From Aquificota bacterium (GTDB taxonomy: Bacteria > Aquificota > Aquificia > Aquificales > Hydrogenothermaceae), in the NCBI GenBank assembly GCA_013153795.1, contig JAADDV010000087.1, positions 1-24,405 of the forward strand: DNA of 24,405 bases, given 5' to 3'. The position numbers were made by a program, and so were the translations under genes. Below, piece by piece: positions 20,836 through 24,405 of the stretch. The stretch's first letter is position 1. Every line of letters starts with the position of its first letter. The notes beneath the pieces were generated by a model. The model was not told where the DNA came from and did no database searches. It worked only from the letters and a program-made list of their open reading frames with translations.

Positions 20836-21588
20836 ATGAGGCTAAAATTAGTACTATCTTCAGATAAAAACTATATATCACTTCCTTTACATCATAATTA
20901 TGCCCTTCAAGTAATGCTATATAAAAGCCTTCCAAATTTTTTATCTAATTTTCTACATAGTATTGGTTATTTTTATAAAGGAAGAAAATTTAAGCTATTT
21001 ACTTTTTCAAAAATACAATCGAAACATTTTATTTTCTTAAAAGAGAAAAAAATAATTAAATATCAGACACCAATTACTCTATATGTATCTTCAGGAATTT
21101 CAGATATAACAAAATCTTGGGGAGAAACTTTTTTGAAAAAAGATAAAGTAATTCTTGGTAAAAATGAGCTTTATCTTGAAGAAATAGAGATACTAACATC
21201 TCCAATTTTCAAAGAAGAAATGCTTATAAAAACCCTTTCTCCTATAACTGTTTATAGAACGTTTGAAAATGATAAAAAATACTATAGATATTACTCACCA
21301 AATGAAAAAGAGTTTCAAGAGCTAATTAAAGAAAATATAAGAAAAAAATACCAGATAATAACAAGAAAAGAACTAAAAGACTTTCCATTTGAAATAAAAC
21401 CACATGAAAACATAAAAAAAGTCCTTTTTAAATATAAAAATTTTCCAATAGAAGCTTACGAAGGAATTTTTAAAATAAAAACAGACCCGGAAATATTTAA
21501 AACCGTATACGACACAGGCTTAGGCGCTAAAAACTCCCAAGGCTTTGGGATGATTGAGGTGATTGAGAATGATAAAGCTAACTTTTGA
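20836..21588 (+). CDS. cas6: CRISPR-associated endoribonuclease Cas6
   Basis: FKLFTFS, TLSPITVY and C-terminal G-rich loop GLGAKNSQGFG. GGGGGAG RBS. Confidence 0.95.
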   Translation: MRLKLVLSSDKNYISLPLHHNYALQVMLYKSLPNFLSNFLHSIGYFYKGRKFKLFTFSKIQSKHFIFLKEKKIIKYQTPITLYVSSGISDITKSWGETFLKKDKVILGKNELYLEEIEILTSPIFKEEMLIKTLSPITVYRTFENDKKYYRYYSPNEKEFQELIKENIRKKYQIITRKELKDFPFEIKPHENIKKVLFKYKNFPIEAYEGIFKIKTDPEIFKTVYDTGLGAKNSQGFGMIEVIENDKANF

Positions 21589-22618
21589 ATGTGAAATTAT
21601 AACTCCAATGTTTATGTATGGTGGAGATGGACGCACACTAGAACTTCGTCCATCTGAATTTAAAGGAATGCTTCGCTTTTGGTGGAGGGCATTACATCCT
21701 GATTTGTCTCTTAAAGAATTAAAAGAGAAAGAAAATGAAATTTTTGGTAGCACAAATAGAAAAAGTGGTTTTAGGATAGTTATTAAACCAATTAATGAAA
21801 TAAGGAATACAAATAAAAATATTAAACATATTAAATTTGATGACAAACAGATTAGTTTAAGTTACTTATTTTACTCTATGTTTTTAGGAGATAATAAAGA
21901 TAAAGAACATTTTTCACCTAATACAACCTTTGAAATTATTTTCTACTTTAAAGATAAAAATCAAGTTAAGGATATTTTACAAGCATTTTGGCTTTTAATG
22001 TATTTGGGTGGTCTTGGAAGTAGAAATAGAAGAGGTGCAGGAAGTTTTATTTACAATAGAATAATTGATCCTGATAATATTTTATCCTTACTTTATTTCA
22101 AGTTTAGGAATAATTTCAAAAATATTAATGATTTAAAAGAATACTTAATTAGCAATTTAATAAGTTTTGGTATATATCCTTCAAAGGAAATTCAAGATTA
22201 CATAAACTTCAAAGGATTTGAGCTATTTTTAGGAAAGAGAACATCAAGAAACATATGGAAAGCTTTACAATATACACAAGAAATTTTAAAGGAATATGAA
22301 GATAAGAATTGTAAGAAAGCTATCTTAGGGTTACCTAGAAAGAATATAAAAATATTAAAGCTAAACAAAAATAGCAAATTAGATGTTAAAAGAAGTGGTT
22401 CTCCATTATTTTTTAAAGTTTTTAGATTAAATCAAAATGAATATGTATTATTAGCCCTTTTATTTTATAAAGAACTTTTACCTAATGGATTTTCAATAGA
22501 TATATGTGAAAGGACAAATAAGGATTTAAAAGAATACATGAAAGATAGATATAAAAATTTATCTAAATATTTAGTATCAAAAAGTCTAGAAGGAATTATA
22601 GGGGTTAGAAATGGATAA
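21569..22618 (+). CDS. cmr1: Type III-B RAMP protein Cmr1 (likely start ATG 21569; ORF track starts at 21563)
   Basis: IITPMFMYGG, ELRPSEFKGMLRFWWRA, IFGST, LGGLGSRNRRGAGS, LGLP and SPLFFKV. GAGGT RBS at 21556. Confidence 0.9.
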   Translation: MIKLTFECEIITPMFMYGGDGRTLELRPSEFKGMLRFWWRALHPDLSLKELKEKENEIFGSTNRKSGFRIVIKPINEIRNTNKNIKHIKFDDKQISLSYLFYSMFLGDNKDKEHFSPNTTFEIIFYFKDKNQVKDILQAFWLLMYLGGLGSRNRRGAGSFIYNRIIDPDNILSLLYFKFRNNFKNINDLKEYLISNLISFGIYPSKEIQDYINFKGFELFLGKRTSRNIWKALQYTQEILKEYEDKNCKKAILGLPRKNIKILKLNKNSKLDVKRSGSPLFFKVFRLNQNEYVLLALLFYKELLPNGFSIDICERTNKDLKEYMKDRYKNLSKYLVSKSLEGIIGVRNG

Positions 22619-22833
22619 AAATGAATATCTTTTTATTTTTACAATAACGCCAGTTCAAAGCTTTATAGCACAAGCTAGGAAAACAAGAGATTTACATGCA
22701 GGAAGTCGGATTTTATCAGAGTTAATTAAGAAAGCCAATAGAAAGAGCACAAAAATATAATGTAGAAATGATAATGCCTCGTTTAGAAGAGAATGAAGAT
22801 TTAAATAAAATATTTTCTATAACAAATAAGTTT
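22611..22833 (+). pseudogene. cmr2: cmr2/cas10 5' remnant, frameshifted and truncated
   Basis: ATG 22611 gives MDKNEYLFIFTITPVQSFIAQARKTRDLHAGSRILSELIKKA, the Cmr2 N-terminal signature. After a +1 shift near 22737 it reads IERAQKYNVEMIMP...SITNKF (SLPNRF-like). There is no Palm/GGDD domain. Confidence 0.85.
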
Positions 22834-23205
22834 TATGTAAATATGGAAAATCAAGAGCTGTTTGACAGGCTAATAAATTCAGTGCAAAAAAAAGAAAGCT
22901 ACTACACTCTTTCCCTTGGACTTGCAAATCTACTGGCAAACTTTAGATATGTAGGTCTATACGATGCTAAACATGTAGAAGAAGCAACAGAACTTCACTC
23001 TATAGTTTTGGCAGAAAACATAAAAGAGCTTGAAGTAGAAGAGGGCAAACAATATTCAAAAGAAAAACTGCCAATGGATATGAACTCTAATAAAGAAGTT
23101 TTAGCTTATAAAGATGTAGTTATGGAAGTGCAGGGGAAGAGTTTAAGGGGAGTATTTAGAGATTTAGTTCTACTGAATGAGAATAACATAATCTGCATTT
23201 ATTGA
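22834..23205 (+). pseudogene. cas5: 3' half of type I-B cas5, fused in frame to the cmr2 remnant
   Basis: YVNMENQELFDRL...YYTLSLGLANLLANFRYVG...EKLPMDM...Y matches the C-terminal half of Cas5 (I-B/Hmari type). The N-terminal G..GHF/TYxxPP motif is missing. Confidence 0.75.
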
Positions 23206-23214
23206 GGAAAGAAA

Positions 23215-24093
23215 ATGGGGAACTGTGAAAATGCTATGATTCTATCAGCTAAAGTGTGCAAATTTGTAGAAAGTGGTGCTATGGAAGAAAGCATTACTGA
23301 TTATATAATATGGAAAATACAAGAATGGGCACCTCTTGAAGTCTATAGTATAAATATAAAAAAATTTACTCGTATAGAAGAAAATAAAGAAACCGGTGCA
23401 GACTTGGAGATTGTTTTTATTGATTCTGATAAAAATTTATCTTTATCTTTAGTTATACAAGCGAAAGTAACTGTTGAAACTTATAAAAGATACTGTAAAG
23501 AAATAGGAAGAAATGGAGGTTCACAGGTAGAAACCTTAATAAATTATTGTGTTTCAAAAGGAAAAATACCTCTTTATATGTTTTATTCTAATCTAGATGT
23601 AAATATAAACAACTTTTGTTGTAGAAGCTATATATACACTATTGAATGCTATACTTCTGGTTGTATAACTCTTCAATCTGCTTTAAGAGTAAAAAGTGTT
23701 TACAAAAAGAAGTGCCAAAGAAATAAAAAGCTAAGCAAATATGAGCTTACAAATTGGGGAATACTTTTTTCTTGTTTATTTTGTTGTCCAATTACACAGA
23801 GAAATAATCCTAGTCCTATAGAACATCTTTTAGAATTTTTTGAAATTTTTTATCTAGATGTTTTAGAAAAAATAGGAAGAGATAAAATATTAAAGAAAGA
23901 AATACCAGAATATGTTAAAAAGATAATTGACAAAAGTTTGGAAAATGAACTGAAAGAAGTTCTAGAAGGAGAAGAAAATTCTAACAAAAATATAGAAGAT
24001 ACACTAAGAAAATACGGTCTTTTATATAAAAGAGATAATATAAAGTTTTATCCATCAAAGATATTAGTAATAGATTTAAATAAGGAAAGATGA
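23215..24093 (+). CDS. Cys-rich putative PD-(D/E)XK-fold nuclease (DUF6615-like)
   Basis: EESITD(24-29), FTRIEE, GAD63...QAK84, SQVETLI and PLYMFY pattern. The family name is from recall and was not searched. Confidence 0.6.
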   Translation: MGNCENAMILSAKVCKFVESGAMEESITDYIIWKIQEWAPLEVYSINIKKFTRIEENKETGADLEIVFIDSDKNLSLSLVIQAKVTVETYKRYCKEIGRNGGSQVETLINYCVSKGKIPLYMFYSNLDVNINNFCCRSYIYTIECYTSGCITLQSALRVKSVYKKKCQRNKKLSKYELTNWGILFSCLFCCPITQRNNPSPIEHLLEFFEIFYLDVLEKIGRDKILKKEIPEYVKKIIDKSLENELKEVLEGEENSNKNIEDTLRKYGLLYKRDNIKFYPSKILVIDLNKER

Positions 24094-24405
24094 GTCGTTT
24101 TCTTCTCTCCCATCCCAATAAACCAATGCACATTCACATAACAAATGTGTGGAAAACGGCCGTCTCTTTTTTTGAGAAAGAAGGGATAAATGATGAGATT
24201 TTAAAAGATATTTTAACGATTATCACATTTGCCCATGATTTTGGAAAAGCTACAGATTATTTTCAGCAGTATATAAAAGGCGATAAATCTTTAAAAAACA
24301 AACCAGAAACCAGACACGCCCATATTGGGGGATTGTTAGGATTTTATTTAGTTGAAAAATATTTAGAAAGTAAAAATATAGACAATCTTTTCTTATTTAA
24401 ATCTA
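24090..24405 (+). CDS. cas3: Cas3, N-terminal HD nuclease domain (runs off window; absent from ORF track)
   Basis: MSRFLLSHPNKPMHIHITNV...AHDFGKATDYFQQYI...ETRHAHIGG, open to the window end. ATGA overlap with the upstream gene. Confidence 0.88.
   Translation, partial: MSRFLLSHPNKPMHIHITNVWKTAVSFFEKEGINDEILKDILTIITFAHDFGKATDYFQQYIKGDKSLKNKPETRHAHIGGLLGFYLVEKYLESKNIDNLFLFKS

Follow-up and report, generated by a model that had tools for sequence, protein, structure and literature searches.

A decayed CRISPR locus in the Aquificota bacterium analysed here carries, between its cas5 and cas3 genes, an inserted cassette that consists of little more than a single open reading frame (ORF), the DUF6615 gene at positions 23215-24093. 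The stretch examined, referred to below as the window, is a complete contig of 24,405 bp (C31) from a genome bin with 84% completeness. By sequence, the product is a member of a catalogued, uncharacterised protein family (PF20320), and according to its predicted structure it is built around a PD-(D/E)xK core of the RecU/Hjc type. With somewhat better than even confidence, we regard it as an autonomous, horizontally mobile PD-(D/E)xK nuclease, probably serving innate defence, that uses the cas operon for expression only. An earlier reading of the DNA (the original prediction) had left open whether the gene was a new ancillary effector of type I-B or hybrid I-B/III-B systems or a stand-alone defence gene expressed from the cas operon, and the evidence assembled below speaks for the latter.

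Insertion at the cas5/cas3 junction

The boundaries of the insertion were obtained by comparison with a second I-B locus of the same bin, located on contig C35 and organized as cas6-cas8b-cas7-(two small genes)-cas5-cas3. Alignment with blastn pairs window positions 22826-23166 with C35 5229-5571 at 86% nucleotide identity to the intact cas5, and 24102-24395 with C35 5616-5909 at 91.5% identity within cas3. Homology to C35 stops at 23166 and restarts at 24102, and this comparison of a filled with an empty junction therefore identifies an insertion in the window, ~935 bp long against 44 bp in C35. The inserted segment consists of the 879-bp ORF, ~48 bp upstream and ~8 bp downstream, the upstream part supplying cas5 with a new 13-codon tail and the ribosome-binding site. 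Neither direct nor inverted repeats suggesting a transposon were found around the insert, and no recombinase flanks it.

Public assemblies from two studies span both junctions. A 1056-nt contig (X2 record 12) corresponds to 23079-24134, X1 record 6 covers 23330-24191, and X4 record 27, from the second study, covers 23047-23244. Contigs lacking the gene are present in the same vent metagenome samples (X1, X2) and join ~23144-23151 directly to ~24098-24108. The contig depth of this gene-less form (160-220) is about ten times that of the filled form (13-25), a ratio that is indicative only, as the depths pool related strains. The features of the locus are the following:

23215..24093, + strand: DUF6615 gene, 292 aa, ATG start (PF20320 match, conservation, AlphaFold2 (AF2) model, fold matches)
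23167..24101, + strand: inserted segment, ~935 bp (homology break relative to contig C35; replaces 44 bp)
23204..23208, + strand: Shine-Dalgarno-like GAGGA (direct sequence reading)
22768..23205, + strand: C-terminal fragment of cas5b, a deletion stub (Cas5b profile positions 99-220 of 223 only)
24090..24404, + strand: N-terminus of cas3 (HD domain), truncated by the contig end (TIGR01596, 45.3 bits; Cas3b PDLC01759, E = 2e-18)
20836..21588, + strand: cas6, first gene of the operon (Cas6b PDLC01782, E = 3e-74; TIGR01877, 150 bits)
21563..22618, + strand: cmr1 (type III-B RAMP), remnant of a III-B module (TIGR01894, 81.5 bits against a cut-off of 28.65; PADLOC Cmr1, E = 2e-35)

The gene is joined to the operon by overlaps on both sides, as the original prediction had described and as the junctions in independent assemblies bear out. 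The stop codon of the cas5 fragment (TGA, 23203-23205) is overlapped by the GAGGA motif, which lies 6 nt from the ATG at 23215, and the stop of the DUF6615 ORF (TGA, 24091-24093) overlaps the cas3 start (ATG, 24090-24092) as ATGA. The 292 codons are uninterrupted at a GC content of 26.5%, and the ORF is beyond chance for DNA of 26% GC, with a Pfam match at E = 1e-15 and homologues at E = 7e-62. The earlier remark that its GC content lies below that of its neighbours holds against the cas5-homologous part (33.4%) and the cas3 part (30.6%), but not against cas6 and cmr1 (25-26%), which are similar to it. No terminator-like site was seen on the + strand between cas6 and cas3. Profile scans did not find cas8b, cas7 or the 5' half of cas5 at the window locus.

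At the end of the contig, the last 21 nt (24385-24405) form a 95% inverted copy of 24071-24091, and public contigs diverge from the window after ~24395, with loose ends in X1-X3; the final ~10 nt of the window are probably an assembly artefact. Contigs C31 and C35 both break at the same place in cas3.

Family membership, predicted fold and candidate active site

The window protein matches the Pfam DUF6615 profile with 58.4 bits against a cut-off of 23.8, its residues 24-258 corresponding to profile positions 29-234 of 289, and a whole-genome scan of the bin gave the same result; the family resemblance, which the original prediction had pointed out, was thereby substantiated. An exhaustive phmmer search returned 227 cluster representatives at E <= 1e-3, just three of them with more than 40% identity. 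The protein resembles the rest of the family in its full-length match above the cut-off, its length and its architecture (~270-300 aa), but it falls into a small, divergent hydrothermal-vent clade with 41-44% identity to the nearest relative, has seven extra cysteines, and is encoded inside defence operons rather than at ordinary intergenic spacing. Nothing significant was found for it in PADLOC or NCBIfam, and scans of Pfam and PADLOC gave no match to toxin families. A CARF or SAVED sensor was likewise absent from the Pfam results, the sole PADLOC match being an insignificant one to CARF3 (14 bits, 52 residues, E = 0.006), in agreement with the original prediction.

Conservation was examined in an alignment of 91 family members, in which G61, D63, Q82, K84 and Q104 are invariant, and E24, E25, T28, D29 and E56 are conserved in at least 90% of sequences. 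The window protein carries all family-invariant residues, including the EESITD helix, GAD, QAK, Q104 and CLFCCP, and the pattern of E24, D63 (GAD) and Q82-A-K84 that had been picked out from the window alone proved to be invariant or nearly so throughout. Cysteines occur at positions 4, 15, 94, 112, 135, 136, 145, 150, 167, 187, 190 and 191; those at 135/136 and 190/191 form CC pairs, the latter within the string SCLFCCP (186-192). The description of the protein as cysteine-rich is thus correct as to the count of 12, but only 5 of these (C4, C135, C187, C190 and C191) are conserved in the family, so that the richness is partly lineage-specific; the family median is 6 cysteines, against 10-15 in the five best-matching homologues. 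Each of the five conserved cysteines is found in 79-85 of the 91 members (87-93%), all five are kept in 61 of them, and His or Asp occasionally replaces one. As this family-wide conservation suggests a metal site, the five residues probably hold a structural metal, either Zn or Fe-S. A Cas4/RecB-type Fe-S nuclease was considered and rejected, the arrangement being C4...C135...C187-x2-C190-C191 with Q104-x3-L108 rather than C...CxxCx5C with QhxxY; Cas4 (4ic1) was also rejected as a structural neighbour, ranking 42nd in Foldseek with a template modelling (TM) score of 0.11.

The AF2 model, computed from the 91-sequence alignment, is confident, with a predicted local distance difference test score (pLDDT) of 88.4 and a predicted TM score of 0.89. 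Its elements follow the order alpha-beta-beta-beta-alpha-beta (H24-36, E42-47, E64-70, E75-85, H93-115, E118-124), and the PD-(D/E)xK core extends over approximately residues 20-125, the remainder comprising an insertion that bears cysteines and a C-terminal part of helices that contains P231-x-Y233. D63 precedes strand 2 and Q82/K84 lie on strand 3, which are the canonical PD-(D/E)xK places. The putative active site would accordingly draw on E24/E25 from helix 1, D63 from the head of strand 2, the Q82-x-K84 pair of strand 3 and, from the helix that comes next, Q104. The core proposed in the original prediction is thus present in the model, and the fold searches, among them the Foldseek comparison it had suggested, agree.

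Against solved folds, VIA-align gave RecU/PrfA (1y1o) a Z score of 7.4 over 141 residues and Hjc 5.2-5.8, followed by about 20 type II restriction endonucleases at 2.5-4.3; the PD-(D/E)xK homing enzyme I-Ssp6803I is among the matches with Z 3.7. Foldseek returned RecU/Hjc with a probability of 0.75-0.92 (E 0.03-0.1), and AFDB clusters labelled 'restriction endonuclease' or 'Mrr domain' matched at E 1e-5 to 1e-4 (Mrr domain, E 7.5e-5). In the ESM Atlas a DUF6615 cluster came first (TM 0.75), then RecU and Hjc clusters, and BFVD yielded weak matches to phage RecU/Hjc. These searches barely covered the C-terminal 70-90 residues, which contain the conserved P231-x-Y233. The human Rab15 effector Rep15 (PDB 8a4a/8a4c), whose fold was called Hjc-like by its authors (PMC9308819), appeared as first or second structural match (VIA-align Z 8.1, 158 residues). 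Homology between Rep15 and DUF6615 is without support at the sequence level, as a search of PDB sequences with the family profile gave chance matches only (PLA2, E 0.17; Rep15, E 1.3).

RecU/PrfA and the archaeal Hjc share with the window protein the core fold, with acidic residues and Lys placed on strands 2 and 3, but sequence similarity to them is lacking, Q replaces E at the third catalytic position, and the window protein has ~170 extra residues in its Cys-bearing insertion and helical C-terminal part. Their housekeeping role also differs from the sporadic, accessory distribution of DUF6615. Mrr-like type IV restriction endonucleases resemble DUF6615 in standing alone, without a cognate methylase, in the D...QxK motif variant and in often adjoining type I restriction-modification (R-M) systems, while the window protein differs from them in having no N-terminal winged-helix reader domain. 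The earlier suggestion of an Mrr-like enzyme was not upheld by sequence: Mrr_cat (PF04471) gave no match at E <= 1, and hhalign against a 16-sequence Mrr_cat alignment returned a probability of 0.7%, a weak test given the narrow taxon sample. Of 36 genomes from this bacterial family, 28 encode a ~260-aa Mrr_cat protein (L130-L149), which was not found in the 84%-complete bin of the window.

A second filled junction and the surroundings of relatives

The closest homologue of the window protein (41-44% identity) is encoded in two genomes of the same bacterial family, G009 and G033, between the methyltransferase (M) and the TdeIII-type restriction endonuclease (R) of a type II system, and this locus provides a second pair of filled and empty junctions. 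Genome G014 carries the same R-M system (amino acid identity to the G009 copy of 80% for M and 82-92% for R), with M and R overlapping by ATGA and R intact. The more distant system of G012 (M 54% identical) has M and R abutting, and R is again intact; neither G014 nor G012 has a DUF6615 gene. Nucleotide alignment places 911 bp of G009, including an ORF of 903 bp, where G014 has 5 bp, and the stop codon of the G009 DUF6615 gene overlaps the ATG of the downstream gene, once more as ATGA. Both lineages with the insert have a split R gene, with the break at residues 113/127 in one (L007:2803-3803) and at 129/156 in the other (L010:1119-2132), the intact genes used for comparison being L118:1267-2274 (minus strand) and L117:1486-2271. 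Between L007 and L010 the DUF6615 proteins are 47% identical and the flanking R genes 70-83%. Filled and empty alleles with precise boundaries therefore exist for both the cas5/cas3 and the M/R junction. The adjacent methyltransferase at L007 was rejected as a partner of DUF6615, as it belongs to the TdeIII-type R gene that is also present.

The family is sparsely distributed. Among 61 related genomes, including that of the window, DUF6615 was found in 3, and in the 2 of the 60 relatives that have it the gene does not adjoin cas genes. A search with a subfamily alignment identified 243 relatives in ~185,000 species genomes (~0.13%), from Proteobacteria, Cyanobacteria, Bacteroidota, Firmicutes, Planctomycetota, Acidobacteriota and archaea. 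A search of 2.9 million viral contigs added 13 more, and a metagenome collection scanned with the window protein alone gave no match.

The neighbourhoods of these relatives are equally varied. No recurrent neighbour family was found in 58 dereplicated loci beyond one Nostoc synteny block, the 102 immediate neighbours being spread over 79 Pfam families of at most 3 members each, and the tallies are too flat for any enrichment figure. The neighbours include toxin-antitoxin (TA) toxins, resolvases and PD-(D/E)xK nucleases, as well as PADLOC matches to DISARM, BREX, SIR2, dGTPase and PDC candidates. A type II R-M endonuclease was rejected as an identity for the family, since no conserved methyltransferase neighbour is found in the 58 loci. 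Most family loci show ordinary intergenic spacing of 50-300 nt and are not operon junctions. Cas homologues were found in none of the 167 other family loci (a set of 92, with 62 metagenome and 13 viral loci in addition; ~1.4 Mb), and a scan of the set of 92 for CRISPR-like arrays was likewise negative, both by crude tests, namely tblastn with the available I-B/III-B Cas proteins and a k-mer array finder. The recurrent cas5-X-cas3 placement that the original prediction had suggested looking for was hence not found.

Contexts were resolved further for 12 sampled lineages with precomputed Pfam neighbours. In 6 of the 12, a gene of type I R-M, type II R-M or BREX/GmrSD is found no more than two genes away from DUF6615, and most of the remaining lineages adjoin PADLOC candidate-defence matches or integrases. 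Two lineages have the gene between M and R of a type II system, and three have it beside type I R-M, one of these with GmrSD as well and another with SLFN and HEPN-AbiU2. Single lineages place it in an island with an integrase, following BREX PglX-PglZ-GmrSD, in overlap with a DUF3800 gene matching PADLOC candidates, between an integrase and T5orf172/DUF2357, before a PD-Lambda-2_B-like gene, after a UvrD-like helicase, in a ParA/integrase element and in a housekeeping context.

The corresponding cas operons of relatives hold other genes. At cas5/cas3, the junction is empty in C35, G014 and G020. The sister genome G001, assigned to the same genus as the bin, encodes a protein with 100% identity to one of Persephonella sp. 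KM09-Lau-8, which makes the bin Persephonella-like. Its junction is occupied by a 231-aa ORF (L109:803-1495, minus strand) that overlaps both the stop codon of cas5 and the start codon of cas3; this ORF has no Pfam or PADLOC match, at least 54 homologue clusters in diverse bacteria and, by hhalign, no similarity to DUF6615. Its AF2 model (pLDDT 96) matches the uracil-DNA-glycosylase (UDG) superfamily in all of the top 14 solved structures (Z 5.0-7.7), which makes it a possible DNA-glycosylase cargo, and an NLNPG motif at about residues 65-70 recalls the MUG/SMUG1 motif. In G002, of the same genus, the junction holds a Phd/YefM antitoxin of 83 aa (L110:1150-1398, minus strand) and a RelE/YafQ-like toxin of 90 aa (L110:877-1146, minus strand). 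The two small genes at the cas7-cas5 junction of C35 encode a nucleotidyltransferase of 113 aa (Polbeta/NTP_transf_2; PADLOC PDC-S09; L006:4208-4549) and an NTase_sub_bind/HepT-like protein of 127 aa (L006:4533-4916), together a pair of the MNT/HEPN type. The presence of such unrelated genes at cas5/cas3 and cas7-cas5 indicates that junctions in these I-B operons collect unrelated small cargo. TA modules coupled to CRISPR-Cas, such as CreTA, are documented (PMC12737573, PMC9458426). CreTA-like cargo is similar in being a non-cas gene between cas genes and co-expressed with them, and the sister loci here hold protein TA pairs at this or an adjoining junction. CreTA, however, is an RNA toxin-antitoxin regulated by Cascade, whereas the window encodes a lone predicted protein nuclease with no companion gene, nothing points to its control by Cascade, and the Cascade genes of the locus are deleted.

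Weighing of the explanations

On the explanation that we favour, the DUF6615 protein would act alone as a Mg-dependent DNA endonuclease and would constitute a solitary, methylase-less innate-defence enzyme, functionally like a type IV or a structure-specific nuclease. The gene would travel between genomes as accessory cargo and would have arrived as a bare cassette exactly at the cas5/cas3 junction of an otherwise decayed I-B module. Within the operon it would be co-transcribed and translationally coupled, the operon contributing nothing beyond expression. It is the solitary state of the gene, the scatter of its occurrence and the frequency of defence or mobile genes beside it, taken together, that point to a solitary innate-defence nuclease. 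Several observations weigh against this explanation. The fold matches, at Z 5-8 and Foldseek E 0.03-0.1, are of moderate strength and give a fold class, not an activity. A homodimer prediction with two copies scored 0.20 against a mark of 0.42, a value that speaks neither for nor against a dimer. PADLOC v2 has no model matching the window protein, no paper naming DUF6615 or PF20320 was found, and no RNA run was found to contain the locus. Within the broad 'GADWEWW' subfamily, a crude tblastn count places matches to type I R-M or BREX no further than 6 kb away in only 6 of 155 loci (~4-5%), and several DUF6615 loci lie among housekeeping genes. In view of the 6 of 155 loci, no strong family-wide R-M linkage is claimed; the link to defence islands is clear for the lineages nearest this gene and modest across the family, being neither strong nor uniform.

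The position between cas5 and cas3, with translational coupling to both and without an internal terminator-like site in the operon, would at first favour an ancillary effector working with Cas3/Cascade or with type III signalling. This role is nevertheless close to excluded, as the crude tests detected no cas neighbour in the 167 other family loci, the junction is empty or occupied by unrelated genes in relatives, cas8b, cas7 and most of cas5 are deleted at the window locus itself, the protein has no CARF/SAVED domain, no neighbour is conserved, and the closest homologues reside in an R-M operon. It is also very unlikely that the gene encodes a housekeeping DNA-repair or junction-resolving enzyme, an analogue of RecU or Hjc that is here by chance: those Holliday junction resolvases are its best solved structural neighbours, but a gene of 3 in 61 related genomes and ~0.13% of species genomes, with variable and often mobile or defence neighbours and no sequence similarity to either family, does not fit such a function. 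The pairs of the Phd/YefM-RelE/YafQ type at cas5/cas3 in a sister genome and of the MNT/HEPN-like type between cas7 and cas5 in the other I-B locus of the bin, together with the documented CRISPR-Cas-coupled TA modules (PMC12737573, PMC9458426), raise the further idea of an addiction or toxin-type module, in which a toxic nuclease cargo would stabilise its DNA segment as TA pairs do at such junctions. We consider this quite unlikely, given that no conserved small antitoxin gene adjoins DUF6615 in the 58 dereplicated loci, that no toxin family is matched, and that the gene is widespread singly and without a partner.

A selfish homing-type nuclease, which would cut empty cas5/cas3 and M/R junctions and be copied in during repair without benefit to the host, would explain the tidy junction insertions and is the main rival explanation. 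Two independent filled/empty pairs have clean edges (935 bp with an 879-bp ORF, 911 bp with a 903-bp ORF) and both recreate ATGA, neither recombinase nor repeats flank the insert, the fold is that of a nuclease with I-Ssp6803I among its matches, and the distribution across phyla is sporadic. Between L007 and L010, moreover, DUF6615 diverges faster than the flanking R gene (47% against 70-83% identity), and the adjoining effector genes are broken in all three close cases. Homing is still unlikely in our judgement, as most family loci have ordinary 50-300 nt intergenic spacing, only 13 relatives occur in 2.9 million viral contigs, the cas5/cas3 and M/R targets have no evident common sequence, and the process requires frequent meetings of filled and empty alleles, which are unproven here. 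That the second cas5-cas3 junction of the same bin, with flanks 86-91% identical, is still empty is a weak argument in the same direction. A bolder proposal, offered as speculation and likewise improbable, would see the vent-clade DUF6615 genes as self-propagating homing-type cassettes at gene junctions in defence operons, their arrival accompanying effector decay, and hence as a selfish element specialised on immune loci; more broadly, the cas5/cas3 junction of these I-B operons would be reserved for cargo, with DNA-targeting innate-immunity genes (a nuclease, a UDG-like glycosylase or a TA pair) replacing one another there.

Through this analysis the family DUF6615 gains a fold class, a candidate active site together with a putative five-cysteine metal site, and a description of its genomic behaviour as solitary and sporadic, the lineages nearest to the window gene often lying in defence or mobile islands. 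It can reasonably be put forward for anti-phage screening as a single-gene candidate. The placement also carries a caution, in that a gene inside a cas operon need not be a CRISPR accessory. The filled and empty pairs indicate that whole genes can slot into the junctions of immune operons without visible mobility machinery and with translational coupling kept, and they offer a small natural system for asking how junction cargo moves.

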